From the NCBI GenBank assembly GCA_029881215.1, contig JAOUNA010000052.1:1-16830 (forward strand): a stretch of DNA of 16,830 bases, read 5' to 3'. The stretch is from Myxococcales bacterium. Lineage in GTDB: Bacteria; Myxococcota_A; UBA9160; SMWR01. The notes under the pieces are model-generated. The model did no database searches. It was not told the origin of the DNA and worked only from the letters and a program-made list of their open reading frames with translations. The position numbers were made by a program, and so were the translations under genes. Positions 1 through 14,035 of this stretch are shown one piece after another. Position 1 is the first letter of the stretch, and every line of letters begins with the position of its first letter.

Positions 1-837
1 CACGAACTGCAGGAACGAGGTGCCCTGTGCACCCGTGAAGTCACCCGTCGCCTTGTAGGAGTTGTAGTTCGACGCTTGGCCGTTCAGGAACTCGCCATTG
101 CCCGACGGATGCTTGTGGTTGTCATTGATATACGTGCCATGGCAGCCCGCGCACCATTCTCCCATGTTCTGACCGTACGCCGGGTGGCTGGCATCCGACT
201 CGGCATAGCCAGCGGTGACGGCGATCGGCGCCGTTGTGGTGCCGATGTCGCGCAGCAACCGGTAGTTACCGGCGATCGTGCCGGTCACGGGCTCTTCCCC
301 GTACGAACCCGACACGGAGATCGGGAGCGCGCCCGCCGCCGTGCCGCCCTGCACCTGGCCGTGCGGATTGTGGCAGCTGTTGCAGCCGAGAGCGCTGGCG
401 GGATAGCCGCCGCCAGGCGCCACCGTGTTGGTGCCGTCCGCAGTCAGGCTGAAGTCGATGGCGACTACGTTGTGACCCATGTTGTCGGGGTCGGACGTCA
501 CCGGTGTGCCGCGTACCACGTTCGTGTAGGGCGTGGTCAACCAGAAGAAATCGCCGCCCGGTGAGAACTTGCTGCCGTTGTTGCTGAGCACGGCGTAGCT
601 TCTGGACGGGTTGCCGTGGCAGTTCAGACAAGTCGAGCTCGCGTCTGTGCCCTTCAGCAGGGTGTTGTTGGGCGTGCCCGAAACCGGGTTATCCGGCGAG
701 TTGTGCATGCTGTGGCACCCGTCGCAGTGTGCGACGCCGCCCTCGTGGAAGGCGAGTGCCGTGTTGGCAAAACCGAGAGTCAGAAGCCCGGCCAGCACAG
801 CAACGCCCTGCACGAGCGTGTGACTATTGATCCTCAT
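1..837 (-). CDS. Multiheme c-type cytochrome. N-terminal ~279 aa are present; the C-terminus runs off the window start.
   Basis: Manual minus-strand translation from the ATG at 837..835 gives MRINSHTLVQGVAVLAGLLTLGFANTALA, a signal peptide. Four CXXCH heme-binding motifs follow: CDGCH, CLNCH, CNSCH and CAGCH (the last is the reverse complement of nt 138-152). GC3 is high. The ORF is open to the window edge, so it is absent from the ORF track. Confidence 0.85.
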   Translation of the reverse strand, partial: MRINSHTLVQGVAVLAGLLTLGFANTALAFHEGGVAHCDGCHSMHNSPDNPVSGTPNNTLLKGTDASSTCLNCHGNPSRSYAVLSNNGSKFSPGGDFFWLTTPYTNVVRGTPVTSDPDNMGHNVVAIDFSLTADGTNTVAPGGGYPASALGCNSCHNPHGQVQGGTAAGALPISVSGSYGEEPVTGTIAGNYRLLRDIGTTTAPIAVTAGYAESDASHPAYGQNMGEWCAGCHGTYINDNHKHPSGNGEFLNGQASNYNSYKATGDFTGAQGTSFLQFV

Positions 838-1975
838 TTTCCAGATCCTCCAAGTGATTGGAATCCTCATCTGCAATGAACTCGAGCCGAGCAGATACCC
901 GCTTTTCTTCGACGGTCTGTTCGGTTTCTTGTGACACCGGTGACGGTGTCGTGATCCCGCTTGCGGGATCGCTGCTCTGTGATGAACGTGACGTTTCGTA
1001 GGTTATTCCGAAGACACTCACTCCTCTGTTTGCGGCTTGGCCGACGTAGACGTTTCCGCTGGTGTCGATGACCAGATCATCTGGCACGATCAAGTTGGAG
1101 GGCTGATCGCCGCGGTAACCGAATTCGGTCTGGAATTCGAGCTCGGAGCTGAAGACCAGAACCACGGAGCGCAGTCGGTCCGTGACGTACACGTATCCCA
1201 TCGCATCCGTGGCGATGCCCGCGGCGACGCCGAACTTGCCCGTTCCGCTCCCGCTTCGACCGAACTGTGTCAACGTGCCGTCAGCGGACAGGCGATACGC
1301 GACGAAGAGAGTCGGAACGGTGAAGAACAGGTTGCGGTTTGCGTCGACAGCAAGACCGCCGAGGTCGGCGTTCTGGAGCTTCTTCTTCTGGCGATCGATG
1401 TTCTGCAGCTGATCCGGGCCCGCATCGTCGAGCGCGAGGCTGGGACGCAGCGCGGCTTTGAGGTCGTATCCGCGCCGGAAATATCCGGCTTCATCGAGCT
1501 CGAGGACGCGCATGGCGTTCGAATCGACCAGATAGAGGGATCCGTTCTGATACAGCAACTGGTCTGCGAGGAATTGTTTGTAGGCAGCCGGGACGTTCTT
1601 GAGCTCGAGCTCAGCGAGGTACTCGCCGCGGTAGTTGAGGAGATGGACCGCGGTGGTCTGATAGCCCGAGGTCAAGAGGAAGATGCTTCCGTCCTGGCCG
1701 ACCGCGATGTCCGCGGCACTGGCATAGGCATCTCCGAAGACGAAGATTTCCATGCCGTGCTCGTCGAAGACGCGAATGTCGTTGTGTCGTTCGTCGAGCG
1801 CATAGACTTCGTTGCGCTCGGGATCGACGGCGAGCTTCGCCCAGTGCGAAGGCACGGGACCGGAGAAGTTGGCCAGGGGATAGCGGAAGGACGCCGCCAC
1901 CTCGGCCCGGCCTGGGAGGGACGCCGCAAGCAGCAGGAGCGCGGCGCAAAGCAGTGTGAGCGTTCGTCCCGTCAT
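824..1975 (-). CDS. Secreted NHL-repeat beta-propeller protein. Likely start is the ATG at 1975, not the track's TTG at 1993.
   Basis: Track ORF 824..1993. Signal peptide MTGRTLTLLCAALLLLAASLPGRAEV. Repeated YVTD/VAVD/LLTSG-type NHL blade motifs. The C-terminal tail is acidic and S/T-rich. Its last codons overlap the cytochrome start (ATGAGGATCAATAG), consistent with translational coupling. Confidence 0.8.
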   Translation of the reverse strand: MTGRTLTLLCAALLLLAASLPGRAEVAASFRYPLANFSGPVPSHWAKLAVDPERNEVYALDERHNDIRVFDEHGMEIFVFGDAYASAADIAVGQDGSIFLLTSGYQTTAVHLLNYRGEYLAELELKNVPAAYKQFLADQLLYQNGSLYLVDSNAMRVLELDEAGYFRRGYDLKAALRPSLALDDAGPDQLQNIDRQKKKLQNADLGGLAVDANRNLFFTVPTLFVAYRLSADGTLTQFGRSGSGTGKFGVAAGIATDAMGYVYVTDRLRSVVLVFSSELEFQTEFGYRGDQPSNLIVPDDLVIDTSGNVYVGQAANRGVSVFGITYETSRSSQSSDPASGITTPSPVSQETEQTVEEKRVSARLEFIADEDSNHLEDLENEDQ

Positions 1976-1988
1976 CACTGGCGGGTTG

Positions 1989-2004
1989 TGCAATGGTTGT
2001 GCCG
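1989..2004 (-). promoter_or_regulatory. Candidate sigma-54 (RpoN) -24/-12 promoter CGGCAC-N5-TTGCA on the minus strand, reading into the NHL/cytochrome operon.
   Basis: Minus-strand sequence is CTTCGGCACAACCATTGCACAACCCGCCAGTGATG. The GG and GC elements are exactly 10 nt apart with GGCAC/TTGCA flanks. An NtrC-type activator gene lies 4.7 kb away. Caveat: the GC element sits only about 14 nt before the ATG at 1975. That implies a near-leaderless transcript or a different start. Confidence 0.35.
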
Positions 2005-2092: not shown

Positions 2093-2477
2093 GCTTATGA
2101 CCACATCGCAGTTGGCGAAATGGCGAATTTCTCGTTGATTTCGGTTTTTTTTCGCTTCCAAGGCAGCGTGTGGCGCCTCGCGATCCCGTTCGACCCGAGC
2201 TGCGCAGTCTTTCATCCAGCCGGCCTTGCTCGCGCGTCGAAACGGGTGTAGGGATGCGAGGTCGATCCTCGACTCGCGAGACGATTCTTCCACCCGGCTC
2301 CCAGATCCTCCTCCGCCTTCGCCGGGGACTCCGTCCGGGTTGCCGCGGAAGCGCTCGATCTCGCTGGCGCAGTCGTTGGGCAGAGCGGACGTGCCGATCC
2401 GGCGGCCGGGAGCTCGAACGGTCGGAGTCGGCGCGCGATCCGGCGGAAGAAGGCGAGACAGCGGAGAGCAAGGGAGG

Positions 2478-3827
2478 ATGACAGTGGTCCCGCGAAGCGC
2501 GCGTCAGGGCAGGAGGATGCTCCTCGCGGTCGTCTTGGCGATCGGCATTTCCCCAGCCACGCAGGCCGCGATTCCCGCAGTGGAACGAGTGGCCTTGATC
2601 GCTCTGTACGACAGCACAGATGGTGACCACTGGGACGAGAACGCCGGCTGGAAGACGGCGCCCCTCGCGGCGGACGGATTCGCCCTGCCCGGTACGGAGT
2701 GTGCGTGGTTCGGCGTCCTCTGTGACGCCGGAGATACGACCGTGCAGATGTTGCTCCTCTTCTGGAACGACCTGTCCGGCAGTCTTCCTCCCGAGCTGGG
2801 AGATCTTGGGAACCTTCTGGATCTCTCCCTCGATGGGAACCATCTCACGGGCGCCATTCCTCCGCGGCTGGGAGACCTCGCCAAGCTCCAGAGTCTCTAC
2901 TTGGATAGCAACCAGCTCTCCGGCGCCATACCGGCCGACTTGGGGAGCCTTGCAGAGATTCGCAACCTCTATCTCCGAGGCAATCAGCTGTCGGGCCCGA
3001 TTCCTTCTCAATTGGGAAGTCTGGCCAGGCTCGAGGATCTCCGCCTCAGCGAGAATCAGCTGTCTGGCAGCATCCCCCCGACGCTCGGGAGCCTCGGGAG
3101 CTTGCGGGTGCTCTCGCTCTACGAAAACGATCTATCCGGCAGCATTCCCCCCGAGCTGGGCGATCTTGCCAATCTCGAAATCCTCTGGCTGGACGCCAAT
3201 CAGCTCTCCGGCAGCATTCCCTCGGAACTCGGGAAGCTTGCCCGCCTGCAGGTGTTCTGGGCCTTCAGCAATCAACTGACCGGGAGTGTTCCCGCGGCGC
3301 TGGGAGCTCTCGTCGATCTCCGTTCTCTCTATCTCAACGGCAATCACCTGGCCGGCAGTCTGCCGCCGGAGCTGGGAGGTCTTGCGAGCCTTCTCCAGCT
3401 CTATCTCTACGACAACCAGCTCACCGGAAGCATTCCCGCCGGGCTCGGCAGTCTTGCAAATCTCGACCGCCTGTATCTGGGCGGCAACCAGCTGTCGGGC
3501 GCCATTCCGCCGGAGCTCGGCAGTCTCGGAAAACTCCGTCGACTTCTGCTCGACCGCAATCAGCTGGAGGGTCCGCTTCCGCTCGAGCTGCTCGGTCTCA
3601 GCAGCCTGGTCGATGCTTCGAGCAATCTGTGTGAAAACCATCTCTACACAGACGACGCTTCGCTCCGCGATTTTCTGAACAGCAAGCAGATCGGTGGCGA
3701 TTGGGAGGCTTGTCAGATTCTTCCGATTCCCTCCGTTCCCGGCAGCGCTCTCCTCGTGATCTTCGCGCTCCTCACAGGATGTGCCTTGTGGCTGCTGCGA
3801 CCATCGATCCCGGTGCATGCGTCGTAG
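2478..3827 (+). CDS. Secreted plant-type leucine-rich-repeat protein with the architecture of a receptor-like protein: signal peptide, LRRNT_2-like cap, 12 LRRs, Cys cap, C-terminal TM/PEP-CTERM-like anchor.
   Basis: Track ORF 2226..3827. The first 84 codons are R/P-rich junk. AGGGAGG at 2471-2477 precedes ATG 2478 / GTG 2484, followed by signal peptide RSARQGRRMLLAVVLAIGISPATQAA. The cap ALIALYDSTDGDHWDENAGWKT...CAWFGVLCD matches the plant LRRNT_2 pattern. Twelve repeats of NxLSGxIPxxLGxLxxLxxLxL follow. The C-terminus is ...CENHL...EACQILPIPSVPGSALLVIFALLTGCALWLLRPSIPVHAS. Confidence 0.9.
   Translation: MTVVPRSARQGRRMLLAVVLAIGISPATQAAIPAVERVALIALYDSTDGDHWDENAGWKTAPLAADGFALPGTECAWFGVLCDAGDTTVQMLLLFWNDLSGSLPPELGDLGNLLDLSLDGNHLTGAIPPRLGDLAKLQSLYLDSNQLSGAIPADLGSLAEIRNLYLRGNQLSGPIPSQLGSLARLEDLRLSENQLSGSIPPTLGSLGSLRVLSLYENDLSGSIPPELGDLANLEILWLDANQLSGSIPSELGKLARLQVFWAFSNQLTGSVPAALGALVDLRSLYLNGNHLAGSLPPELGGLASLLQLYLYDNQLTGSIPAGLGSLANLDRLYLGGNQLSGAIPPELGSLGKLRRLLLDRNQLEGPLPLELLGLSSLVDASSNLCENHLYTDDASLRDFLNSKQIGGDWEACQILPIPSVPGSALLVIFALLTGCALWLLRPSIPVHAS
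2748..3612 (+). repeat. Twelve tandem ~72-bp imperfect direct repeats (the LRR units) inside the LRR gene.
   Basis: Recurring DNA words at 72-bp spacing (e.g. caatcagctgtc(c/g)ggc..., ggcagcattcc, ctctatct) correspond to the 24-residue protein repeat. Confidence 0.8.
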
Positions 3828-3917
3828 AGCCAGCGGATCCGCGACCCGTGGATTGAGCGAAATGACAGATTTCCGATCGTGCACAATGCGAGGCCCCGCA
3901 TGACTTCCAGGATCCCG

Positions 3918-4856
3918 ATGCCGAGCGATTGCTCGAAACGGATGCGCTACCTCGCGATTCTCCTGGTGCTTGCTCCGTTGCTGGCATTTGCGGCGAATTG
4001 CAGCGAGCAAGAGCCGACAGCGACTGCGAGCCAGGAGCCTCAGAGATCGATCCGGATCGGCCTCATTCCGGAGCAGAACATCTTCCTTCAGAAGAAGCGC
4101 TACCAGCCGCTCGCAGACTACCTCTCGGAGAAGACTGGTGTGCGCATCGAGCTTCGCGTGCTCTCCAGATACGGGAACATCATCCAGAATTTCGTTTCCA
4201 AAGGTCTGGACGGGGCGTTCTTCGGCAGCTTCACGGCGGCACTGGCGCACCGGAAGCTCGGTGTCGAGGCCGTGGCGAGACCGGAATATCCGGACGGCAG
4301 CTCGACATATCACGGCCTCCTCTTCGTTCGGAAAGACAGCGGAATCCGGAATGGAAACGACATGAAGGGGAAGCGTTTTGCCTTCGTGGACAAGGCAACC
4401 ACCGCCGGATGGCTGCTTCCCCTCTACTATTTCAAGACCCAGGGCATTCGGGACTACCGTTCCTGGCTCAAGGAATCGTACTTCGCGGGAACCCACGAGG
4501 GCGCGATCTACGACGTCCTCGAGAGAAACGCCGACATCGGGGCCGCGAAGAACACGGTATTCGAGGCGCTCGCACGCGAAGATCCCCGAATCTCTGAGGA
4601 TCTGCTGATTCTGGCCCGATCCCCGGATGTACCCGAAAATGGCTTGTGCGTGCGAAAGACGCTCGACGAGCCGCTCAAGCGAAAGCTCAGGGAAACCCTT
4701 CTGGGCCTCGATACGACCAGAGAGGGGAAGAGGATCTTGAAGAAATTCGGTGCGCGCCGATTCATCCAGACGAGCGAGAACGACTACGCGGTGGTGTTCG
4801 AGTATGCACGGGAGATTGGGCTCGATCTCGAGACGTACGACTACATGAACGAGTAA
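3918..4856 (+). CDS. Orphan periplasmic substrate-binding protein of the PhnD/phosphonate-binding family. No ABC permease or ATPase is present nearby.
   Basis: Track ORF 3879..4856; probable start is the ATG at 3918 or 3942. Signal peptide MRYLAILLVLAPLLAFAANCS. Family pattern IRIGLIPEQN...PLADYL...GV.IEL......Y..I......G.DGAF.G.......H..LG.E....P....SS.YHGLLFVRKDSGI....DMKGKRFAF.D..TTAGWLLP..YF...GI. Confidence 0.8.
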   Translation: MPSDCSKRMRYLAILLVLAPLLAFAANCSEQEPTATASQEPQRSIRIGLIPEQNIFLQKKRYQPLADYLSEKTGVRIELRVLSRYGNIIQNFVSKGLDGAFFGSFTAALAHRKLGVEAVARPEYPDGSSTYHGLLFVRKDSGIRNGNDMKGKRFAFVDKATTAGWLLPLYYFKTQGIRDYRSWLKESYFAGTHEGAIYDVLERNADIGAAKNTVFEALAREDPRISEDLLILARSPDVPENGLCVRKTLDEPLKRKLRETLLGLDTTREGKRILKKFGARRFIQTSENDYAVVFEYAREIGLDLETYDYMNE

Positions 4857-4898
4857 CCGCGTGGCGGCGCCGAGTCCCGCGCGGCTCGAGAGCAGTCG

Positions 4899-6746
4899 AT
4901 GAAGAAGAAGATCTTCATAGGGTTCGTGATCCTGACCGCCTGCTTCGTGGGGGGCGGCATCTACATCGCTCGCTCCATCGACCAGGTGATCTCGAAGCTC
5001 GAAGCTGTCATCACGCTGCACCAGGTCGAGATCCTGCGGAAGAGCTTCCTTACGGACGTCAAGGCCGTTCAGCAGGATCTGCTGCTCAAGGATTCGCCCC
5101 ACGAGGCAGAGGATGATTCCGTCATTAGGCGCGGTGAGAAGATGGCGGAGGAGGTCGCCGGCTGTTTCGCCTGTCACCACGCGGAGCCGGCACTCCATCA
5201 GCTGAAGAGTCTACAGGGCGAAATTGACCTGTATCAGAAAGCTCTCAGCAGGGTCTACACGACCCGGGCAAACGCCGAGCGATTGAGTCGACAGAAGCAG
5301 GTCGCGTTCCACATCGGACAGCACTTGATCGAAGAAATCGACAACATCATCGAGTACTCGTCACGCGCACTGGGAAACCGGACGCAGCTCGCGAAGCACA
5401 GCATCGCCGAGACGAAGAAACACCTGACTTTCCTCGTGATTGCGGGACCGGTGATCGGTCTGGCGATCGCTCTGTACTTCATCCACTACCTGACGCGTTC
5501 GATGGGAGCCCTCATCGACGGGACTCGAAAGCTGGAATCCGGTCAGCTGGATCACAAGATCGAAGGCCTGCGGGACGAGTTTGGTGAGCTGGGGGCCTCG
5601 ATCAACGAGATGGCTCATTCGCTGGGCAAGATGATCCGCGCGATCGAGGAGAGCCAGAAGCGGTACAGGATGTTGTTCGAGAGCGCGGGAGATGGAATCC
5701 TCATGCTCGAAGCCGAGGGGGAGAATGTCGGCGGAGTCGTGTCAGCAAATCAGGCGGCTGCGGATATGCATGGCTACACCGTCGCGGAGATGTTAGCGCT
5801 CAACCTTCGAGATCTCGATGCCAGTGAGGACACAACAGCGGCGCGCAAGCGCATCGATCGGATCCTGGGCGGAGAGTGGATCAATGTGGAAAGCAGCCAT
5901 CGAAGGAAGGACGGCTCGATCTTTCCGGTCGAGATCAGCGCAGGGCTGCTCGAGTTCGAGAATCAAAAATACATTCTCGCGTTCGATAAGGACATCACGG
6001 AGCGAAAGCAGGCGGAAGACGCCTTGCAGCGGGCCGAGCAACTGGTGGTCGTGGGCGAAATGGCAGCCGGGCTGGCCCATGAAATCAAGAATCCTCTCGC
6101 TGGAATCAAGGTGTCGATCGAGGTCTTGACGAGCGAGCTGCAGCTCGAGCAAGAGGACAAGGAAGTCTTCGAGCGGATCATCGACGAAATCAATCGTATC
6201 GAGACGCTGCTGAAGAATTTGCTCAGCTACGCAACACCCCCGAGGCCGCAGTTTGCGCTGGTCGACGTGAACAAGATCGTCGAGACGGCGATCAAGACGG
6301 CGGCGTTCACGCTGAAGAGTCCGGGCGGGGAGGCGAAGGAGAAGGACGCGAGGGATGTCCGATTCGAGAAGAGGCTGAGTGAGCATTTGCCGCAGATCGT
6401 CGCAGACGGGGCTCAGCTGCAGCAGGTACTCCTGAATTTGCTGATCAACGCGATGCACGCGATTCAAGGCTCCGGTTGCATTTCGGTTGCTACTGCCGCT
6501 GGCACTGCGCATGCGGTCCAGATCGTCGTGTCGGATACGGGAAAGGGCGTCGGCGGCGCGGACATGGAAAAGATCTTCCTGCCGTTCTTCACGACGAAGC
6601 CGAAGGGAACAGGGCTCGGACTGTCGATCTGCAAGCGCTTGATCGAGCAGCACGGCGGCTCGATTGAAGTTGCGCGCGGTCCGCAGGGAGGCCTCATGTT
6701 CACGATCAGTCTGCCGGTCGAGCAGGGGGAGGGCAGTCACTCGTGA
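4899..6746 (+). CDS. Sensor histidine kinase. Its periplasmic domain (about 150 aa) carries a CXXCH c-type heme motif, followed by HAMP, PAS, HisKA and HATPase_c.
   Basis: TM1 is IFIGFVILTACFVGGGIYIA and TM2 is LTFLVIAGPVIGLAIALYFIHYL. The loop between them contains GCFACHH (nt 5163-5180). A PAS domain runs from RYRMLFESAGDGILMLE to ITERKQAE. The H-box is AAGLAHEIKNPL, the N-box LLNLLINAMHA, G1 VSDTGKGV and G2 KPKGTGLGLSI. Confidence 0.9.
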   Translation: MKKKIFIGFVILTACFVGGGIYIARSIDQVISKLEAVITLHQVEILRKSFLTDVKAVQQDLLLKDSPHEAEDDSVIRRGEKMAEEVAGCFACHHAEPALHQLKSLQGEIDLYQKALSRVYTTRANAERLSRQKQVAFHIGQHLIEEIDNIIEYSSRALGNRTQLAKHSIAETKKHLTFLVIAGPVIGLAIALYFIHYLTRSMGALIDGTRKLESGQLDHKIEGLRDEFGELGASINEMAHSLGKMIRAIEESQKRYRMLFESAGDGILMLEAEGENVGGVVSANQAAADMHGYTVAEMLALNLRDLDASEDTTAARKRIDRILGGEWINVESSHRRKDGSIFPVEISAGLLEFENQKYILAFDKDITERKQAEDALQRAEQLVVVGEMAAGLAHEIKNPLAGIKVSIEVLTSELQLEQEDKEVFERIIDEINRIETLLKNLLSYATPPRPQFALVDVNKIVETAIKTAAFTLKSPGGEAKEKDARDVRFEKRLSEHLPQIVADGAQLQQVLLNLLINAMHAIQGSGCISVATAAGTAHAVQIVVSDTGKGVGGADMEKIFLPFFTTKPKGTGLGLSICKRLIEQHGGSIEVARGPQGGLMFTISLPVEQGEGSHS

Positions 6747-8134
6747 CGATGATCAAGGGAAGAATCTTCCTGCTGGACGACGATGAGTTGATTTCTTCAA
6801 TGGTGGCACGATCGCTGAGGAAGGAGGGCTACGAGGTCAAGAGCGAGACGGGCACGGAAGACATCATCAGCAAGATCTCCACGTGGTGCCCGGACCTGAT
6901 CATGCTCGATATCCACCTGGATGAGGAGAAGAGCGGGCTCGACATTCTCGGCGAGCTGAAGCGAGAGGAAATTCCCGGTGAAGTCGTGATGCTGACGGCG
7001 GACGCATCGGCCGAATCAGCGATCACTGCGATGAAGCTCGGCGCAGCAGACTACCTGACGAAGCCCTTCAACATGGCTGAGGTGCAGCTCGTCATCCGGA
7101 AGGTGATCGAGAAGGAGAGGCTCAAGGAAGAGGTCCGGTACCTCAGGAAGGTCGGAACCATCGGTGTTCAGGACCAGATGATCGGTGAGTCTGCGGCGAT
7201 GGTGGAGTTGATGGAGAAGGCGGAAAAGCTCGCAGAGGCTCATGTTCAGAACGTGTTGATTACGGGCGAATCCGGTACCGGGAAGGAGGTCGCCGCGCGC
7301 TATATCCACAACCGGCTGCACGCGAGGCGCGGTGACGAGTACGCACCCTTCATTGCCGTGAATTGTACTGCCTTGCCGGAGCAGCTGTTCGAGAGCGAGC
7401 TGTTTGGCCACGTGAAGGGAGCGTTCACGGACGCGAGGAACGATAAGAAGGGAATGTTCGAGCTCGCCAACGGCGGAACCATTCTGCTCGACGAAATCGG
7501 GGACATGGCAGCGAATCTCCAGAGCAAGCTGCTTCGCGTGCTCGAGGATCGGTCGGTGAGGCGGCTGGGGGGCAAGACGGATCTTCCGGTCGACGTGAGC
7601 GTAATCGTCACGACGAACACGCGGTTGGATGAAGCGGTGAATCTCGGGAAATTCAGGACCGACCTCTTCTATCGATTGAATGCGTTTCCGCTGCACATCC
7701 CGCCGCTGCGAGAGAGACGCGAGGACATCCCGCTGCTTGCGCGGCATTTCCTGCAGTTGTTTGCGCAGAAGTACCTGAAGAGGGCGATTCGGGAGTTTTC
7801 GCCGGAGGCCGAGAGGATTCTTTGTGCGCACGACTGGAAGGGGAATTGTCGCGAGCTGCGGAACGTGATCGAGCGGATCGTGGTGCTGGAGAATGTGGAG
7901 ACGATTCTTCCGGAGCATCTTCCGGCTGCCTTGCTGAAGGAAGAGTTCGTCGAGAGGCGGCGCGCGACTGGATTCGTGCTGCCGGAGCAGGGAATTTGCC
8001 TCGAGGAAGTGGAGAGGGATCTGATCGTTCAGGCGTTGAAGCGCGCGGAGAACAACCAGACGAAGGCCGCGAAATTGCTCGATCTCTCCTACGACTCGCT
8101 GCGGTACCGCATCAAGAAGTACGGGCTGGTGTAG
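6743..8134 (+). CDS. Sigma-54-dependent response regulator of the NtrC family (REC, AAA+ sigma-54 activator, Fis-type HTH).
   Basis: GTG 6743 overlaps the HK stop (GTGA). REC domain: LLDDDE...IMLDIHL...MLTADAS...KLGAADYLTKPF. Walker A GESGTGKE. ESELFGHVKGAFTDA. The arginine-finger region is FYRLNAFPLHIPPLRERREDIP. C-terminal HTH QTKAAKLLDLSYDSLRYRIKKYGL. Confidence 0.92.
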   Translation: MTMIKGRIFLLDDDELISSMVARSLRKEGYEVKSETGTEDIISKISTWCPDLIMLDIHLDEEKSGLDILGELKREEIPGEVVMLTADASAESAITAMKLGAADYLTKPFNMAEVQLVIRKVIEKERLKEEVRYLRKVGTIGVQDQMIGESAAMVELMEKAEKLAEAHVQNVLITGESGTGKEVAARYIHNRLHARRGDEYAPFIAVNCTALPEQLFESELFGHVKGAFTDARNDKKGMFELANGGTILLDEIGDMAANLQSKLLRVLEDRSVRRLGGKTDLPVDVSVIVTTNTRLDEAVNLGKFRTDLFYRLNAFPLHIPPLRERREDIPLLARHFLQLFAQKYLKRAIREFSPEAERILCAHDWKGNCRELRNVIERIVVLENVETILPEHLPAALLKEEFVERRRATGFVLPEQGICLEEVERDLIVQALKRAENNQTKAAKLLDLSYDSLRYRIKKYGLV

Positions 8135-8571: not shown

Positions 8572-10923
8572 CTAGCGGAATCCGTGCGACGCGAGAACTC
8601 GGGCGGGGAATCCGGGGCCTTCTTCCTCATCGATTTCGTGCAGGTGCTTGTGCTGTGATGCCATCTCGGTCCTGATCTGGACCAAGACCTGCTGGAACTC
8701 GGGCAGATCCCAGAGCAGCTCGAAGGCCGGATCGAGGGGCAGGATCCACCAGGCCACTCGCGCGCCGGCGGCGACGTCTCGTTGCAACGCGGCCAGTGCG
8801 CGTCCCGGCTCGCCCGCGATGCTATGCGCGAGAACGTCCGCGAAGCCGTGGCCAGAAATGCCGGTCACGGGCAGCTTCTCGATGCTGGAGAGAGTCGCGC
8901 CCAGGAGCTTCACCGCGGCATTCCGGTCGCCGGTCTGCAGGCGCAGCAACGCGAGGCTTGCTGCGGCTGTGTAGTTGCTTCCTTGTACGAGGGGTGGGGT
9001 GCTCAGCAACTCCGGATAGATTCTCTCGTAGACGGCCAACGCGGCTTCGGGATCCACCGACTGAAGCTGCCGGAGCCAGAGGAGATGGGGCACGGCCTGA
9101 TATCCAGAGATGCGATCCGTTCGTGTGGCGAACGCTCGCGCGATCTCGAGCGCTTGCTGCCGGTCCCCAGCGTGAAGCGCGAAGAAATAGCGACCGGTAA
9201 GCGCGAAGTAGGTGTCGGGCGCGGTGGCCAGGAGGACTTCCAGCCACCGCGCTGCGGCCGCCGTGTCGTCCAGGTGCAGGTAGAGATGCACGAGCTCGGC
9301 GAGCATCCAGGGTGCCGGATCGAGCGCCAGGGCCCGGGCGAACCAGCGGATGCTCTCATCGATGCGGCCGAGACTCCAGCCCTGCACGATCGCAAGGGCC
9401 CAGTAGTTGGCCGTGACGTCGGGTGACTTGGCGATGTTGGCGCGCAGCCGCTCGATTCCATCCTCCACGCGCCCCGATGCGGCCAGCGCGTAGCCGAACA
9501 GATATTGAGTCACCACGTTCAGCGGGTCTCGCGCGAGGGCCTTCTCGAGGTGGCGCAGTCCCTCTTCCGGCCGTCCGAGGGTTTCGAGCAGCAGGAAGCC
9601 GTAGAGCTCGTGGGGCCCCGCATCCGGGCTCAGCTCGAACGCGCGCAGGTAGGCCGCCTCTGCGCCAGCCGGGTCGCCGAGCAGTTGGCGCAGACGTCCC
9701 AGCGTGGTGTAGGTCTGCGGAGACTCGGGATCGAGCGCCAGCGCCCGCTCCATGGCGGAGCTGGCCGAACGTTCGGCAACCTCGCGGGAGATCGATCCAA
9801 ACTCGTAGAGATTGGCGTAGATGTTCACCAGCGCTCGTTGGGCCGCGGCAAAATCCGGATCCAGCGCGGCGGCTCGACTGTACCACGAGAGCGCGACCAT
9901 CCCGCTCTGAGCGCCCACGTTCTGATGCGCGGCGCGACCCCTCAGGAAGGCTTCGTACGCCTCGATATTGGTGGTTCCGCCCCAGTCCAGCGCGCTGACC
10001 TGCAGCTCGAGGCGCAGCGCGTTGGTGATCTGCCGCGCAATGTCATCCTGGATTTCGAAGATGTCCTGTAGCTCCCGGTGATACGTCTCCGCCCACAGCT
10101 GGAACCCATCCTTCGCGCTGACGAGCTGCGCCAGCACGTGCACCTGGTTTCCGGAAGTGTGCACGCTGCCTTCGAGGATGGCCTCCACCCCGAGCGCTTC
10201 TCCGATCGTCTTGAGATCGGCATCGCTCCCCTTGAACGAGAACGAAGACGTGCGGCCCACCACCCGCAGACCCTCGAAGCGCGTGCAGATGTTGATCAGC
10301 TCCTCGGCCACGCCCTCGGCGAGATACTCCTGATCCGCGTTGTCACTCAGATTGATGAAGGGCAGCACGGCGAGGGAGCGCGGCGGGGTGGGCCTGGCGG
10401 AGCAGAACTTGACGCCCCAGACGGCGGCAGCCGTGAGCAGGAGCAGGACGGCCGCGCGGGCGACTCGGAGTGGGATGCGGATCTGCGCGGGCGCGGTGTG
10501 GCTCATCGCCGGGGCGTGACGGCGCTCCAGGGCGGGGGGCCACGCTGTGATGCTCTCGCTGCCATGCTCGCCCCGGCCGCATCGCGTCGGCGGGAGGGTC
10601 GCTTCGGGCTCCGGCAGCACGTCGACGTCCGCAACGAATCGGAAGCCGTGCCCGTGCTCGGTGCGCAACAGCTTCTGATGCTCGCCGTCGTCGCCGAGAG
10701 CCCGGCGCGCCTTCTGAACGGATCGCGCCAGCGCGGCCTGGGTTACATTGACGCCGGGCCAGAGCGCGTCGAGCAATTCGCCGCTCGACACGACGCGGTG
10801 GCGTTGCTCGATGAGGTAGGCGAGCACATCGAAAGCCTTGGGCTCCAGCGGAACCCGCTGCCCGCGCCGCAGCAGGCTCCTCGCATCGGTGTCGAGGTGA
10901 TACTCGCCGAACCCGAAGCGCAT
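8572..10923 (-). CDS. Membrane-anchored one-component regulator of the CadC/ToxR type: N-terminal OmpR/PhoB winged HTH, single TM, TolB-N-like periplasmic domain, long TPR region.
   Basis: Track ORF 8572..10962 uses a GTG start; the ATG at 10923 (MRFGFGEYHLD) is more likely. wHTH: LEPKAFDVLAYLIEQRHRVVSSGELLDALWPGVNVTQAALARSVQKARRALGDD...HGFRF. TM: IPLRVARAAVLLLLTAAAVWGV. TolB-N-like segment: LAVLPFINLSDNADQEYLAEGVAEELINICTRFEGLRVVGRTSSFSFKG...ILEGSV...QLWAETYHRELQDIFEIQDDIA. TPR-like AYxxAL repeats fill the rest. Confidence 0.8.
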   Translation of the reverse strand: MRFGFGEYHLDTDARSLLRRGQRVPLEPKAFDVLAYLIEQRHRVVSSGELLDALWPGVNVTQAALARSVQKARRALGDDGEHQKLLRTEHGHGFRFVADVDVLPEPEATLPPTRCGRGEHGSESITAWPPALERRHAPAMSHTAPAQIRIPLRVARAAVLLLLTAAAVWGVKFCSARPTPPRSLAVLPFINLSDNADQEYLAEGVAEELINICTRFEGLRVVGRTSSFSFKGSDADLKTIGEALGVEAILEGSVHTSGNQVHVLAQLVSAKDGFQLWAETYHRELQDIFEIQDDIARQITNALRLELQVSALDWGGTTNIEAYEAFLRGRAAHQNVGAQSGMVALSWYSRAAALDPDFAAAQRALVNIYANLYEFGSISREVAERSASSAMERALALDPESPQTYTTLGRLRQLLGDPAGAEAAYLRAFELSPDAGPHELYGFLLLETLGRPEEGLRHLEKALARDPLNVVTQYLFGYALAASGRVEDGIERLRANIAKSPDVTANYWALAIVQGWSLGRIDESIRWFARALALDPAPWMLAELVHLYLHLDDTAAAARWLEVLLATAPDTYFALTGRYFFALHAGDRQQALEIARAFATRTDRISGYQAVPHLLWLRQLQSVDPEAALAVYERIYPELLSTPPLVQGSNYTAAASLALLRLQTGDRNAAVKLLGATLSSIEKLPVTGISGHGFADVLAHSIAGEPGRALAALQRDVAAGARVAWWILPLDPAFELLWDLPEFQQVLVQIRTEMASQHKHLHEIDEEEGPGFPARVLASHGFR

Positions 10924-11253
10924 GGGCCGCAAGCCTCTTCGCCCCGAGGCGCATTTTGCCACGGCGCAGCGAGCAAAGGAAAGAGCGCGATTGCTGCGCC
11001 TGCGGGTAACACAATCACTCGCGCGTGTCTTTCTGGGCGTGGGGGAAGAGCCAATGTGAGGGGGAGCAGCGTGTTGCGCGCCTAGTCGGATTAGCCCCCA
11101 GACTCGGACGCTGCGTGCGACGACGCATGCCCCGGCCCGCGCGTCAGGGGGTCACGCCACCGCTGCGTTCAGCCGATGCGGGGAGGTTGGCGCGGATTCC
11201 CTGCGCGATGGGCGCGCGGAGCGGATCCTCGCCCGGATTCGAGCTCGACGCCG

Positions 11254-11664
11254 ATGTACCTCCGTTCGCGAGGCTTCGCGCTCGCCAGCATTGCGCTGGC
11301 GCTCTTTCTCGGCTGGAAGGTCCTGGCGCGTGGCGCCCACGAGGTCGTGGTGCTGCGCACCGAGACGCTCCAGGGGCAGGACCACTACGCCACCCTCTGG
11401 GTGGTCGATGCCGAGAAGTTCGTGTGGATCCGCGCCGAGAGCCCCACTCGGCGCTGGCTTCCGGCCGTGCGCAAGAATCCCCAGGTAACGCTGCGGCGCG
11501 GCGGTCGCGATCTGCGTTATCGCGCCACGATCTGGGACACACCGGAGGCGCGTGCTTACGTGGATCCGATGTTCCGCGCCAAGTACGGTCTGGCAGATAC
11601 CGCGCGCGCAATCCTGACGCAGCGCGAGACCATTCCCATCCGGCTCGAGCCGCAGGCGCGCTGA
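11254..11664 (+). CDS. Small N-terminally membrane-anchored protein with a DUF385-like (deazaflavin-dependent nitroreductase / PNPOx-like split-barrel) fold.
   Basis: Track ORF 11176..11664; the ATG at 11254 gives MYLRSRGFALASIALALFLGWKVL, a TM helix. Pattern VVLRTETLQG...LWVVDAEKFVWIRAES...WLPAVRKNPQVTLRRGG...ATIWDTPEARAY...IPIRLEP resembles the DUF385 consensus (W..NL.ANP.V ... T.EER ... IPIvv.EP). GC3 is high, and the overlapping minus-strand ORF is R/P-rich junk. Confidence 0.55.
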   Translation: MYLRSRGFALASIALALFLGWKVLARGAHEVVVLRTETLQGQDHYATLWVVDAEKFVWIRAESPTRRWLPAVRKNPQVTLRRGGRDLRYRATIWDTPEARAYVDPMFRAKYGLADTARAILTQRETIPIRLEPQAR

Positions 11665-11672
11665 CGTCGCCG

Positions 11673-12461
11673 CTAACGCTTGTCCGTGTCCTTGGAGTGG
11701 ACGATCTCGTCGATGGTGAAGCCTTCGCTCTCCGCGAGCTTCTCGATTTCCCTGCGCACGCGCTCCTTCGCCGCGACGCGGCGCTTCTCGATCTCGTCTC
11801 CAATGCGCTTGCGCAGCGACTCGAGCTCGGGCAGAGGATAGTCGGCGAGATCGAGGTCCTGTGCTCGGCGCGCGACGCGTACCGACGCCGGCGCATCGCT
11901 GTGGCGCTCGGCGCTCGGCTTCGGCGCGCTCTTCTTTTCGGCGGGCTCTTTGGCGGGCTCTGGTTTCGACTCTTCGAAGCGGATGGCGGTGTCCATGTCA
12001 TCGAGCGGATCCGAGCCGGGTTTCGTCTGGGGCGCCTGGCGCTTGTCGGACCGCGCGTCGAGGACCTGGGGCGCCTCGTCGAGCGCATCCGCGGAGTCGT
12101 CGGTGTCGAGGGAGGACGCGGCATCCAGCTCGGCGCTCTTGCTGGCGTCGACCAATGTTGCGACCCGATCCACGCCCCGGCGCAGCTCCGGGCCGGGCTT
12201 TTCGTACGCGATGGCGAAGCCGCCGGCGGTGTGTCGCGCGACCTTGCCCTCGAGCTGAAAAGGCTTGTCCTGATTGGGGAGAGATACGTACAAGATCGTG
12301 TGGGCACCGACCTTCGGCTGAAGCTCTACATCCTCGATGCGCGCGCCTGTGTACGAGATGTCGGCGAGAATCCCTTCTCCTTCCTGACGCTGGGAGGAGA
12401 AGTGCGTCTCGAACCAGGTGCGGATGCGGGGACTCCGACGTGTCGCGCTCGCTTGGTCCAT
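11673..12461 (-). CDS. PilZ-domain protein (putative c-di-GMP receptor) with an acidic/Lys-Pro-rich disordered linker and a C-terminal charged coiled-coil helix.
   Basis: Track ORF 11673..12656; the ATG at 12461 is preceded by GAGGGGTGG. The PilZ signature is RRSPRIR (RxxxR) followed 22 residues later by DISYTG (DxSxxG). The linker is DDSADALDEAPQVLDARSDKRQAPQTKPGSDPLDD...KPEPAKEPAEKKSAPKPSA. The tail is LPELESLRKRIGDEIEKRRVAAKERVRREIEKLAESEGFTIDEIV. Confidence 0.75.
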   Translation of the reverse strand: MDQASATRRSPRIRTWFETHFSSQRQEGEGILADISYTGARIEDVELQPKVGAHTILYVSLPNQDKPFQLEGKVARHTAGGFAIAYEKPGPELRRGVDRVATLVDASKSAELDAASSLDTDDSADALDEAPQVLDARSDKRQAPQTKPGSDPLDDMDTAIRFEESKPEPAKEPAEKKSAPKPSAERHSDAPASVRVARRAQDLDLADYPLPELESLRKRIGDEIEKRRVAAKERVRREIEKLAESEGFTIDEIVHSKDTDKR

Positions 12462-12633
12462 GGGTTCCACCCCTCTTGTCGTCCAGGGAAGCCCGGGCTG
12501 CCGGCCCGGCGAGCCCGCCGCGATAGGAACGCGGCTCTGGCTATGGGGGTGAATCGGCTGGGATCGAAGCGGACCTGAGATCGATTCTCGTCTCTCCGCA
12601 GCCACGTTGCTCGCGACTGCGGGGGCCCGACGC

Positions 12634-12999
12634 TCAGCGAATGCGCAGGAAGGCAAGCCCGACCGCGAGCATCACGCAGGCGCAACCCGCGGCCGTGAGA
12701 AGGAATCCGGCACCGCCCAGGTAGAACCACCGCAGCACGGCGGCGCGCTCGGGGCCCGAGAGATCCGCGTGCAGGGCGGTCGGTCGCAGCCACCAGCGCG
12801 CCGGCAGCGGCCCGTGCGCGCGCAGCGCGCGGTACAGCCGCACGTGGTACCAGAATCCGGTTGGCACGCCCAGCAGCATGCCCAGCGCCACGCAGCCGAT
12901 CCCGGCCGACAGGACCCACTCGAGCGGGAGGATCGGGACGAGCCAGCCAATCGCGCAGAGCACGACGAGCGCGGCCAGCGCGATCAGCGTTTCACGCAC
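12634..12999 (-). CDS. Small hypothetical integral membrane protein (3 predicted TM helices, W/R-rich loop).
   Basis: GTG start at 12999. Strong GC3 bias. Hydrophobic segments LIALAALVVLCAIGWLVPILPL, VLSAGIGCVALGMLLGV and FYLGGAGFLLTAAGCACVMLAVGLAFL. Same strand as the flanking SBP and PilZ genes. Confidence 0.5.
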   Translation of the reverse strand: MRETLIALAALVVLCAIGWLVPILPLEWVLSAGIGCVALGMLLGVPTGFWYHVRLYRALRAHGPLPARWWLRPTALHADLSGPERAAVLRWFYLGGAGFLLTAAGCACVMLAVGLAFLRIR

Positions 13000-13062
13000 G
13001 CCTCGCCCATCGTCCGCGCCGCGCGCGCGCTTGAACGCGTGGGCGTCGATCCACCGCTGCAG

Positions 13063-13905
13063 CTAGGGAAGTTGTTCGAGCCAGCTTGCGTCTTCGAACC
13101 AGCGATCCTGGAGCTGCGCGAGCCTGCCGGTGAACTCGAGACCCTGCAGCAGGTTGTCGACGAAGTTGAGCAGCAGCGGGTCCCCGGCCGGGAGCGCGAT
13201 GCCGATCGGCTCGTGGGTCAGCCGGGTGATCACCGAGACCAGATCGCTGTCGGGGTTCCGGGCGTGGGCGACCAGGCAGATGGGATAATCGGCGATCATC
13301 ACGTCCGCCTCGCCCGAGAGCACGCGGCTCACGGCCGTGTCGTAGTCGGGCGCGGTCGTCAGCCGCGCCGCCGGAATCAGCTTCTCGACGAACGCCTGGC
13401 TCGTGGAGCCCTGCAGCGCGGTGACGGTGAGGTTTGCACTGTTGATTTCCGCGGCGCTCTCTGCCGAGGCAAGGCTGCTGGCCTTGGTGAGCACGCACTT
13501 GCCGGAGACGAAGTACGGACCCGCGAAGGCCACCCTCAGGTTGCGCTCGGGCGTGATGGTCATGGCGGAGAGCACCATGTCCACCTTGCCGGTCTCGAGC
13601 GCTCCGAGCAGCTCCGAGAACTGCAGCCTCTCGAGTCGCAGCTTCACGCCCATTGCAGACGCGAGGTACGCGGCCAGATCCGGCTCGAGTCCGATGATCT
13701 CACCGCTGCGCGTCGTCATGTTGAGCGGCGGCATGCTGGCTGCGGTCCCGACCACCAGCTCCCCGCGCGAGAGAATGCGGTCCAGGACCGGCGAGTAGGT
13801 GGCCGCCGGCGTGCCCCCGACGTGCGAGCAGCCGAGCAGCAGGAGCAGCGGCGCGGCCAGGGTCCAGCGCGTCCAACGAGTCGGTCGGGTCTGCGGTCGG
13901 TGCAT
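13063..13905 (-). CDS. Orphan lipoprotein substrate-binding protein of the SBP_bac_3 (polar amino-acid binding) family.
   Basis: Track ORF 13063..13920; the ATG at 13905 follows GGGAGGAG with a 5-nt spacer. Lipobox LLLLGC. Family pattern LVVGTAASMPPLNM...GEIIGLEPDLAAYLASAMGVKL......F..L..AL..GKVDMVLSAMTIT.ER...V.FAGPYF.SG....GEADVMIADYP. No permease or ATPase gene lies within the window. Confidence 0.85.
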   Translation of the reverse strand: MHRPQTRPTRWTRWTLAAPLLLLLGCSHVGGTPAATYSPVLDRILSRGELVVGTAASMPPLNMTTRSGEIIGLEPDLAAYLASAMGVKLRLERLQFSELLGALETGKVDMVLSAMTITPERNLRVAFAGPYFVSGKCVLTKASSLASAESAAEINSANLTVTALQGSTSQAFVEKLIPAARLTTAPDYDTAVSRVLSGEADVMIADYPICLVAHARNPDSDLVSVITRLTHEPIGIALPAGDPLLLNFVDNLLQGLEFTGRLAQLQDRWFEDASWLEQLP

Positions 13906-13996
13906 CGGGGCTCCTCCCATCTGAGCGCTGCGTCACCGCGGGGCGTGGAGCGGAGCGCGGGGAGCGGGAGGGTAGGCTGCGGAGACCTGCTGTCGA

Positions 13997-14028: not shown

Positions 14029-14035
14029 GGGGAGC

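Follow-up and report, generated by a model that had tools for sequence, protein, structure and literature searches.

A bacterial leucine-rich repeat protein of the plant-specific class and its linkage to NHL/multihaem-cytochrome genes and a haem-motif sensor kinase

The window analysed here, i.e. the entire stretch of 16,830 nucleotides, carries on its forward strand a gene for an exported-type leucine-rich repeat (LRR) protein. As the preliminary description had stated, this gene lies between a sigma-54 operon, which is transcribed divergently from it, and an SBP/HK/RR module that occupies positions 3879..8134 (Table 1). The divergent operon pairs an NHL/SBBP beta-propeller gene with a multihaem cytochrome c gene that shares 14 nt with the end of the NHL gene. 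The module on the other side combines a phosphonate-type SBP with a HAMP-PAS histidine kinase and an NtrC-type activator.

Table 1. Features of the LRR locus and its flanks, with positions in the window
Feature	Position	Strand	Basis and remarks
Multihaem cytochrome c gene	1..837	-	four CxxCH motifs visible in 279 aa; runs off the window start
NHL/SBBP beta-propeller gene with signal peptide	824..1975	-	Pfam NHL/SBBP matches; recurrent neighbour of the LRR subfamily
Sigma-54-type promoter cGGCACaaccaTTGCA	1989..2004	-	serves the divergent NHL/cytochrome operon; not part of the LRR gene
LRR protein gene	2478..3827	+	449 aa and stop; Pfam LRR_1/4/8/14 matches; homologues 44-57% identical
Signal peptide, residues 1-30	2478..2567	+	predicted cleavage between ATQA and AIPAVER; hydrophobic core at residues 14-30
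N-cap, residues 31-88	2568..2741	+	helix ERVALIALY, DGDHW, GWKT..DGFALPGTE, C75-x-W-x-G-V-x-C82
Twelve uninterrupted 24-residue plant-specific-class LRRs, residues 89-376	2742..3605	+	repeat register; PDB matches by sequence and by fold; model made up of beta-beta-helix units
C-cap, residues 377-413	3606..3716	+	recurrent bacterial module; LVDASSNLC385ENHLYTDDASLRDFLNSKQIGGDWEAC412Q
C-terminal anchor or sorting signal	3717..3824	+	I417-P-S-V motif, hydrophobic helix 422-440, R441 and 8 residues; hydropathy
Phosphonate-type SBP gene	3879..4856	+	Pfam
HAMP-PAS histidine kinase gene with periplasmic CxxCH motif	4899..6746	+	Pfam
NtrC-type sigma-54 activator gene	6743..8134	+	Pfam

The LRR reading frame has two candidate starts, ATG 2478 and the in-frame GTG 2484, of which the latter has the better spacing because a GGGAGG sequence abuts the ATG. 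The signal peptide shows the n/h/c layout, and the junction of its last alanine with AIPxxER is conserved among homologues, from which we infer that the protein is exported across the inner membrane. A GRRMLL stretch that looks like a twin-arginine motif was considered as a sign of Tat export and rejected; it is not conserved in orthologues, and for this reason Sec export is assumed. Pfam profile searches with the whole protein recovered LRR_1 (E=1.8e-37) and LRR_8 (E=9.4e-22) with scores far in excess of chance.

All twelve repeats are exactly 24 residues long and in register. N9, L11, G13, I/L/V15, P16, L19 and L22 are each present in 12 of 12 repeats, and S/T12 and G20 are near-invariant (10 and 11 repeats, respectively). 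This array fits the published consensus of the plant-specific (PS) class, LxxLxLxxNxL(t/s)GxIPxxLGxLxx, which is found as tandem repeats of 23–25 residues (PMC2946307). In a sequence search of the PDB, 23 plant LRR-RK ectodomains rank first (GSO1, 5.5e-150), and only after them comes Leptospira LIC11098 (6e-86), the highest-ranking structure from a bacterium. The AF2 model of the protein (pLDDT 92, pTM 0.85) displays two strands and a short helix per repeat, and its best 50 Foldseek matches in the PDB are all plant LRR-RK ectodomains. By sequence and by predicted fold the repeats are thus assigned to the PS class and not to the usual bacterial classes, in agreement with the preliminary description, which had recognized the class from the repeat pattern and proposed the structural comparison with plant ectodomains as a check. 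Internalins, T3SS effectors and Leptospira LIC proteins resemble the LRR protein in being secreted or surface bacterial LRR binding proteins, but they differ from it in repeat class and length: internalins are SDS22-like with repeats of 22 residues, and T3SS effectors (XopL, XopAC, XopAE) have the 20-residue 'bacterial' class. The corresponding NCBIfam scores fall short of the cutoffs for both internalin_A (63.4 vs 1600) and XopL (41.6 vs 500). A TRF search detected no 72-nt tandem array in the LRR gene at the DNA level, suggesting that the repeats are old and speaking against a recent expansion. Among 12 orthologues, the variable positions of the concave face do not differ in mean entropy from those of the convex face (1.57 vs 1.52, p=0.69), giving no signal of a ligand face; the only pattern among these orthologues is that repeats 1–4 are more variable than repeats 5–12.

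The region preceding the repeats, with the layout ERVALIALYDSTDGDHW..GWKT..EC75AWFGVLC82, contains a helix predicted by AF2 at residues 34–46 with pLDDT >96, and had been equated with the plant LRRNT_2 cap. When the whole protein was searched against Pfam, LRRNT_2 (PF08263) was not matched. The N-cap alone scored 10.7 bits (E=0.66) and 13.2 bits (E=0.11), both below the gathering threshold of 20.7 bits, with the match limited to its last 11–14 residues at profile positions 28–41. Related bacterial caps match LRRNT_2 at E<=1 in 51 of 58 cases, the best of them at 5e-7. Furthermore, a profile of the bacterial caps run against the PDB obtained 31 matches, 29 of which are plant receptor N-caps (PEPR1, 7.8e-4; BAK1, about 0.01), though the alignment covers only the W..CxWxGVxC half. 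The proposed equivalence thus receives some support from the CxWxGVxC motif and from the related caps, but none from the score of the cap in the window; likewise, the Pfam check suggested in the preliminary description recovered the LRR families and not LRRNT_2. The N-cap alone, used as the query, matched 2,459 clusters at E<=1e-3, and a single protein can contain as many as 20 cap stretches. Both cysteines are retained in 149 of 326 caps.

The cap that follows the repeats is of a different kind. We detected 163 instances of it in 115 of the 264 fetched proteins; its cysteine pair occurs in 13 and shows co-variation with R..T. Searching with a profile built from 44 C-caps, we recovered no PDB chain at E<=10, not even among the plant LRR-RK/RLP entries (e.g. 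7drb), and no Pfam family. Judged from these searches, the C-cap is a helical module of bacteria that is unrelated to the plant caps. Given that it has neither a Pfam model nor a solved relative, this module (..NxLYTxDxxLRxFLNxKQxGGDWExxQ) could serve to define a new family. The cysteine pair within each of the two caps could form a disulfide.

The protein ends in a hydrophobic helix and a tail of nine residues, R441-S449; this segment, GSALLVIFALLTGCALWLL, is devoid of a GxxxG motif, and no cytoplasmic domain was found in the protein. The tail aligns with those of orthologues that have the pattern [VI]P[TAS][LIMV]..G-TM-GR[ST]. IPTL_CTERM is the best match for 7 of 15 distinct tails, over its full length and at 13.8–19.8 bits. 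The tail in the window (IPSV, helix, single Arg) had no match to IPTL-CTERM at E<=10, nor to any other sorting-signal model, and resembles IPTL-CTERM at the level of the pattern, i.e. IPSV followed by the helix and R. Two orthologues, at loci L063 and L068, possess instead a long T/P linker and a PEP-CTERM-like end, which was matched by PEP-CTERM (TIGR02595) and by seven PEP-CTERM families. The tails of the subfamily share with IPTL-CTERM (TIGR04174) and PEP-CTERM a hydrophobic helix that is preceded by a short motif with a proline and followed by basic C-terminal residues, but all orthologue scores stay below the respective cutoffs (best 19.8 vs 20.5 bits for the former and 14.5 vs 16 bits for the latter). 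This pattern suggests that the tail is interchangeable among orthologues with IPTL-CTERM-like and PEP-CTERM-like sorting signals. To our knowledge, there is no identified sorting enzyme for the IPTL-CTERM signal class, and none for a tail of this type was identified in our analysis. The surface S-layer protein of Methylomirabilis lanthanidiphila is an IPTL-CTERM protein (PMC8671808).

Comparison with plant LRR-RLPs and LRR-RK ectodomains (MIK2, GSO1, PEPR1, FLS2, BRI1) reveals a common repeat class, a solenoid with beta-beta-helix units, an N-cap ending in W..CxWxGVxC and the same layout, which runs from the signal peptide through a cap, the LRRs and a second cap to a single helix and a short tail. 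The protein departs from them in its sub-cutoff N-cap, in its C-cap and in its tail, which appears homologous to bacterial sorting signals. In SOBIR1-dependent RLPs the GxxxG motif of the TM helix serves association with the partner kinase; the LRR protein has neither this motif nor an acidic juxtamembrane stretch. It also lacks an island domain, a feature of many RLPs in which the LRRs are interrupted (PMC4030839), its twelve LRRs running without a break. Thus, of the complete plant RLP architecture proposed in the preliminary description, the repeats and the overall layout hold; the Cys-containing cap and the single TM helix with its nine-residue tail do exist, but as a bacterial module and a sorting-signal-like end, respectively, they lend no support to an RLP-like reading.

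More than 7,900 homologues of the LRR protein were recovered, whereas a look-up of the exact protein gave no record. Precomputed domains on them include fn3, T9SS, PPC and Big_2; their C-terminal ends vary, and the cassette is also joined to dockerin-like domains or sorting signals. Relatives with the same architecture comprise four proteins (P0017, P0098, P0103 and P0186) and about ten further distinct genes on metagenome contigs from a scan that used the LRR tail as its anchor; these relatives align in register and differ by indels of whole repeats. Sequence comparison thus indicates that the cap-LRR-cap cassette, far from being rare, is widespread in environmental bacteria and forms a large modular family. 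Bacterial PS-LRR proteins have already been reported (Miyashita, Kuroki, Kretsinger & Matsushima 2013, Nat Sci 5:580, doi 10.4236/ns.2013.55074, as cited by PMC9471246 and PMC5122149) and share the same 24-residue consensus, LxxLxLxxNxL(S/T)GxIPxxLGxLxx; the new element of the present analysis is the gene context of the subfamily.

These comparisons bear on whether the gene might be a recent acquisition from a plant, a eukaryotic contaminant or a host-mimicking T3SS effector of the XopAC or XopL type. Among solved structures plant proteins do score best, and there are weak NCBIfam matches to XopAC and XopAE. However, the latter amount to about 84 bits (84.5 and 84.2) against cutoffs of 450 and 600, and the protein, with its signal peptide and membrane anchor, is devoid of any effector domain. 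The nearest relatives are bacterial or metagenomic with 44–57% identity, as against 37–39% for the plant structures, and a single named plant protein occurs among the best 120 matches. The GC content at the LRR gene (0.62–0.65) is the same as in its flanks, and the neighbouring genes, the C-cap and the tail all point to bacteria; in particular, the kinase and the regulator are 64–76% identical to those of Deltaproteobacteria MAGs, consistent with the preliminary assessment that the flanking genes are bacterial and argue against contamination. The combination of a bacterial C-cap with interchangeable bacterial anchors implies that we are not dealing with a plant receptor transplanted into a bacterium. 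We therefore regard this group of explanations as exceedingly improbable and as effectively refuted already.

Turning to the gene neighbourhood, NHL homologues that are 54–64% identical adjoin the LRR genes at loci L045, L053, L056, L063 and L068, and cytochrome genes with 70–74% identity come after NHL at L045, L056 and L068. Altogether, NHL and/or cytochrome genes adjoin the LRR gene in the window and at L045, L053/L054, L056, L063 and L068, in at least four gene orders. At L058, 3.8 kb upstream of the LRR gene were free of NHL, and several other loci do not extend far enough for a judgement. This linkage may in part be synteny inherited within one clade. Housekeeping genes (ComM-like, topo VI) are found downstream of the LRR gene at L047, L049, L054 and L056; downstream reading frames that clustered with the LRR gene proved to be ComM-like Mg-chelatase genes and not LRR paralogues. 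The contexts of P0017 and P0103 contained no related neighbours. These last observations, together with the fusion of most family members to adhesin-type domains (fn3, Big_2, T9SS, dockerin-like) or their organization as giant multi-cassette proteins, are what a generic adhesin would lead one to expect, i.e. a surface LRR protein whose targets are substrates, cells or matrix in the surroundings and which is functionally unconnected to its neighbours, the linkage simply reflecting inherited order in one clade. Nevertheless, the adjacency of LRR and NHL genes has been kept through at least four rearrangements among proteins that are only 46–57% identical, which exceeds what simple conserved order predicts, and we consider the generic adhesin rather unlikely.

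The SBP, kinase and regulator genes lie on the strand of the LRR gene with a gap of 52–118 bp, and no terminator-like site separates the LRR gene from that of the SBP; over positions 1900-4000, the search yielded neither a sigma-70-like promoter nor a terminator. The kinase has a periplasmic sensor domain at residues 26-175, and its CxxCHH motif does not vary among the 21 matches, which come from 20 loci. This arrangement had given rise to the idea of an RLP-like co-receptor, in which an LRR ectodomain anchored in the inner membrane binds a periplasmic ligand and signals to the neighbouring SBP or kinase, the sensor domain of the latter being available as a partner. In favour of it, about 30 bp lie between the end of the LRR gene and the HK(-RR) genes in two closely similar contigs, L052 and L059, with a kinase that is 67–68% identical; as there is no SBP between the two, the LRR gene occupies the SBP position. 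It should be noted that both contigs carry the same kinase N-terminus and hence count as a single observation. Against it, the LRR gene is absent from all 42 kinase-anchored genome loci, including the 64%-identical L001 and L002, and no two-component system is found near the subfamily members at L045, L056, L063 and L068. Moreover, the T/P linker and PEP-CTERM-like end of the L063 and L068 orthologues favour surface display over an inner-membrane signalling helix, and the lack of GxxxG and of a cytoplasmic domain likewise speaks against a co-receptor. The position directly upstream of a kinase gives the co-receptor limited support, but with many subfamily loci lacking a nearby two-component system we consider it unlikely. 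A related and still more doubtful proposal is that the ectodomain acts as a co-sensor, with binding of a ligand or of a redox-state-dependent partner modulating the haem-motif kinase and, through it, sigma-54-dependent expression of the NHL/cytochrome genes, and with the LRR protein replacing the SBP in L052/L059.

A perfect TGGCAC-N5-TTGCA occurs at the same position upstream of NHL at L045, L053, L063 and L068, and sigma-54 sites with up to 2 mismatches were found in 5 of 6 kinase-linked genome loci. For the NHL gene in the window, the mRNA starting from such a promoter is predicted to be nearly leaderless. Direct sigma-54 control of the LRR gene was considered and rejected: in the window no site upstream of it combines an intact GG/GC with up to 3 mismatches, and the best candidate (2365..2380) is without the -12 GC. 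Across 14 related loci, 11 had no sigma-54 site upstream of the LRR gene, and sites with 2–3 mismatches were restricted to L047, L049 and L054. Hence, the LRR genes are not co-regulated with the NHL operon by that route.

In view of the rearranged but persistent neighbourhood, we favour the idea that the protein is an exported solenoid binding protein with a partner that, in this lineage, most likely comes from an envelope redox system, and we think this probably correct. The signal peptide would take the protein across the inner membrane, and the cassette of cap, twelve LRRs and cap would fold outside the cytoplasm. The C-terminal hydrophobic helix and Arg would tether it, or the same helix may serve as a cleavable IPTL-CTERM/PEP-CTERM-like sorting signal that leads to the cell surface. 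It is through the LRR surface that the partner would be bound. Here and in close relatives the LRR gene would head the operon of the haem-motif sensor kinase and the NtrC-type activator, which plausibly switch on the NHL/cytochrome operon. As for the role of such binding, our first guess is that it provides the propeller/cytochrome pair with scaffolding or adhesion, and our second is accessory sensing. NHL proteins have been reported with multihaem cytochromes in gene clusters for extracellular electron transfer (EET), such as the Uet cluster of Ca. Tenderia and, as cited there, Gmet_0556 and the D. ferrophilus complexes (bioRxiv 10.1101/2022.05.06.490989). The operon in the window resembles these in combining genes for a multihaem cytochrome and an exported NHL propeller, but no LRR component is described for them, and the link here is one of gene neighbourhood.

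The abundance in environmental bacteria of 'plant-specific' LRRs with an LRRNT_2-like cap, in the form of a portable cap-LRR-cap cassette, corrects the tempting reading of such a gene as a plant receptor. It also raises the idea that the plant receptor ectodomain may have been acquired from bacteria, and not the reverse. For bacterial PS-LRR proteins, the subfamily described here offers a testable context, namely an NHL/multihaem-cytochrome cluster of the EET-linked kind under putative sigma-54/haem-sensor control. If the co-sensor proposal were true, plant LRR receptor complexes (LRR-RLP/kinase pairs) would have a prokaryotic analogue, which would also bear on the origin of plant receptor ectodomains.

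The open reading frame is a real gene with a product of 449 residues, and its anatomy (see table) is that which a preliminary description had read from the sequence: repeats, two caps, a hydrophobic helix and a tail. Its exact start codon is ambiguous, because two GGAGG motifs (window 2472..2486 and 2509..2519; GGGAGGATG, AGGAGGATG) each touch an in-frame ATG without a spacer, whereas the first of them is separated from GTG 2484 by 6 nt, a normal distance. Given that GGGAGG directly abuts ATG 2478, this in-frame GTG may be the true start.

Features of the LRR protein (residue numbering of its own product), of the window and of related loci
Feature	Location	Strand	Remarks
Cytochrome c gene, multihaem	837..1	-	four CxxCH motifs visible; continues past window edge
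NHL/SBBP beta-propeller gene	824..1975	-	exported; left of LRR gene
sigma-54 promoter, near-consensus	2004..1989	-	cGGCACaaccaTTGCA; ahead of NHL/cytochrome operon
LRR gene	2478..3827	+	
Signal peptide	residues 1-30	+	ends ATQA/AIPAVER
N-cap	residues 31-88	+	ends EC75AWFGVLC82
12 LRRs	residues 89-376	+	24 residues each, perfectly in register
C-cap	residues 377-413	+	C385 and C412
Hydrophobic helix	residues 422-440	+	
C-terminal tail	after helix	+	9 residues
Histidine kinase	4899..6746	+	periplasmic domain of ~150 aa between two TM helices
CxxCHH motif of kinase	5163..5177	+	
OmpR-type winged-helix plus TPR regulator	8572..10962	-	796 aa
67-75% GC stretch	11025..14148		long + strand ORFs, 517 and 513 aa, no Pfam match
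Band 7/SPFH gene	14544..15584		
~720-aa and GNA1162-like gene region	L045 306..3068	-	
~720-aa and GNA1162-like gene region	L056 1..2541	-	
~720-aa and GNA1162-like gene region	L068 6253..9046	+	
~270-310-aa conserved gene	L056 7461..8387	-	also L047, L048, L049, L053, L054, L058, L063, L080

Plant-specific leucine-rich repeats (PS-LRRs) follow the consensus LxxLxLxxNxL(t/s)GxIPxxLGxLxx (PMC2946307), each diagnostic position of which is filled in 10–12 of the 12 repeats. Pfam LRR models match the protein with e-values down to 1.8e-37. When it was compared with all PDB sequences, ranks 1–23 were occupied by ectodomains of plant LRR receptor kinases (LRR-RKs), namely GSO1 (5.5e-150) followed by MIK2, PEPR1, FLS2 and others, with the best bacterial entry, Leptospira LIC11098 (6e-86), falling below them. 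An AlphaFold2 model built from 36 homologues (pLDDT 92, pTM 0.85) predicts a repeat unit of two strands and a short helix, typical of PS-LRRs, and the 50 PDB structures that Foldseek ranked highest for it were all plant LRR-RK ectodomains, a comparison that the preliminary description had called for; MIK2 was among the matches (3e-25, TM 0.71, 37% identity). Matches to the NCBIfam XopAC, XopAE, XopL and internalin models were far under their cutoffs. Sequence ranks, predicted fold and these scores together place the repeats in the PS class, as originally proposed, and in none of the usual bacterial classes. No 72-nt periodicity was detected by TRF in the DNA of the gene, and the repeats are therefore ancient at that level.

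The caps relate to plant receptors less directly. Pfam LRRNT_2 did not match the whole protein, and the isolated N-cap reached 10.7–13.2 bits against a cutoff of 20.7, aligning over its last 11–14 residues only. Among 58 related bacterial caps, 51 hit LRRNT_2 at E<=1 (best 5e-7), and 29 of 31 PDB matches of a bacterial-cap profile were plant receptor N-caps (PEPR1 7.8e-4, BAK1 about 0.01), the alignment spanning the W..CxWxGVxC half. Both cysteines are kept in 149 of 326 bacterial caps, under half. The N-cap thus appears LRRNT_2-like at the level of the family, with the window's copy below the curated threshold. The 59-residue N-cap alone retrieved 2,459 clusters (50% identity) at E<=1e-3 and 604 at E<=1e-10, with up to 74% identity. 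Many of these matches are giant proteins of 2,000–6,600 aa in which as many as 20 stretches match the cap (for example, the homologues P0123, P0127, P0132 and P0133, within P0121-P0264), so that the cap-LRR-cap cassette serves as a repeated building block.

At the other end, the segment SNLC-ENHLYTDDASLRDFLNSKQIGGDWEAC-Q fits a module of the form ..(D/N)F(C/R)xNxLYTxDxxLRxFLNxKQxGGDWE(S)(C/T)Q, with 163 instances in 115 of 264 fetched proteins. The Cys pair is found in merely 13 of these instances and is elsewhere jointly replaced by R..T, the covariation expected of a putative optional disulfide. Searched with a profile of 44 instances, the PDB yielded no hit at E<=10, not even among its plant LRR-RK and receptor-like protein (RLP) entries, and the profile matched no Pfam family. 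The Cys-containing cap, real as it is, is thus a bacterial module and not the plant C-cap.

The single TM helix and short tail are likewise present, but resemble bacterial sorting signals in relatives. Proteins of exactly the same architecture (P0017, P0098, P0103, P0186), together with about ten further distinct genes on metagenome contigs found by a C-cap-plus-tail alignment search, show a pattern of [VI]P[TAS][LIMV]..G, hydrophobic helix and GR[ST], several having VPTL, VPTI or VPTM. IPTL-CTERM (TIGR04174), a signal also carried by the surface-layer protein of Methylomirabilis lanthanidiphila (PMC8671808), was the recurrent full-length best match for 7 of 15 distinct tails, although at 13.8–19.8 bits against a cutoff of 20.5, and the window's own IPSV tail matched no sorting-signal model. 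In the orthologues at loci L063 and L068 the place of such a tail is taken by a Thr/Pro-rich linker followed by PEPGLLLQLASGLLGLVVLDKRRRR, which matches PEP-CTERM models (TIGR02595 at 14.5 bits, cutoff 16) and seven PEP-CTERM family C-termini. Among remoter relatives of the cassette, the C-terminus is made up of dockerin-like repeats, of fn3 domains or of an unrecognised TPPFxxAMPWIPLLLLDD. That these ends can replace one another speaks for an anchoring or sorting role of the helix and against a signalling helix of the plant kind; since all sorting-signal scores are sub-threshold, this reading is an inference. In five loci (L069, L071, L074, L076, L077) the C-cap leads directly into a short conserved end, TPPF(T/F/I)(R/K)AMPWIPLLLLDD, for which the NCBIfam sorting-signal models gave no match; it may represent a C-terminal signal not yet described. 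The plant RLP architecture, first described as complete, is only partly supported: it is retained in the repeats and, sub-threshold, in the N-cap, but not in the C-cap and anchor, which are bacterial, and the protein has neither an island domain nor a GxxxG motif.

Plant-type repeats in a bacterial contig could reflect plant origin, contamination or effector mimicry. However, the best of over 7,900 significant homologue matches are 44–57% identical and mostly bacterial or metagenomic, with one named plant protein in the best 120; homologues carry fn3, T9SS, PPC or Big_2 domains. The GC content of the gene is in line with its flanks, and the adjoining kinase and regulator are 64–76% identical to Deltaproteobacteria MAG counterparts. 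These comparisons give no sign of recent transfer from plant to bacterium or of the eukaryotic contaminant considered at the outset, and all three readings appear highly improbable.

The gene lies, as had been noted, between a sigma-54 operon and a sensor module, which the promoter and the Pfam-identified neighbours bear out. The NHL and cytochrome genes form one minus-strand operon to its left; NHL proteins adjoining multihaem cytochromes have been described in extracellular-electron-transfer clusters (bioRxiv 10.1101/2022.05.06.490989). From the -12 GC to the NHL ATG there are only 15 nt, in the window and in L045 (4217-4247), a distance that implies an almost leaderless mRNA and leaves a ribosome-binding site no space. 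The LRR gene is followed, on its own strand, by genes for a phosphonate-type SBP, a HAMP-PAS histidine kinase and an NtrC-type sigma-54 activator (SBP-HK-RR). The c-type haem-binding motif in the periplasmic domain of the kinase is invariant in 21 of 21 matches (20 loci) of 28–62% identity; the protein looks like a periplasmic haem/redox sensor kinase. Perfect TGGCAC-N5-TTGCA sites precede NHL in L045, L053, L063 and L068, and of six genome loci linked to the kinase, five have a site with <=2 mismatches in this place; the simplest circuit suggested by these sites would run from the kinase through the NtrC regulator and sigma-54 promoter to the NHL/cytochrome operon. A ~720-aa protein without Pfam match and a GNA1162-like (PF05643) protein accompany the NHL, cytochrome and LRR genes in three loci, one of which (L056) also has a YNCE-like beta-propeller there, and the window's operon may continue into such genes past its left end.

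No LRR gene was found in 42 kinase-anchored genome loci, about ten of which retain SBP-HK-RR and six also NHL. A 67–68% identical kinase begins ~30 bp after the end of the LRR gene in L052 and L059, with no SBP between and, in L059, with the regulator following; as both contigs share one kinase N-terminus they count as a single observation. The LRR-kinase association is therefore narrow, and a role as accessory sensor for the kinase seems unlikely. Loci anchored on the LRR tail place a subfamily gene beside NHL and/or cytochrome in L045, L053/L054, L056, L063, L068 and the window, in at least 4 different gene orders. This association is recurrent and not universal, given that L058 has no NHL in the 3.8 kb upstream, the P0017 contig has unrelated neighbours, that of P0103 nothing but a 52-aa ORF, four loci run on into ComM-like and topoisomerase VI genes, and no LRR locus has a sigma-54 promoter ahead of the LRR gene. 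A conserved gene without Pfam match lies divergently upstream of the LRR gene in 8–9 related loci and is absent from the window. That the protein is a generic adhesin with merely inherited neighbour linkage is a lesser possibility. We moderately favour a binding and scaffolding module of the envelope or surface that works with the sigma-54-controlled NHL/cytochrome system, the functional part being held with much lower confidence. The protein, a predicted 12-repeat solenoid of a bacterial cassette family, would be exported by Sec (the twin-arginine-like GRRMLL is not conserved in orthologues), form disulfides in both caps, be tethered or cleaved for sorting through its C-terminal signal, and bind a partner through its LRR surface; concave and convex residues did not differ in conservation (p=0.69).

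PS-LRRs were once viewed as confined to plants (PMC2244805), and bacterial PS-LRR proteins have since been reported (Miyashita et al. 2013, as cited in PMC9471246 and PMC5122149). The LRR protein of the window belongs to this already reported and, by our searches, very abundant kind, to which it adds an undescribed C-cap module, interchangeable tails resembling sorting signals and a recurrent link to a putative redox-sensing sigma-54 regulon.
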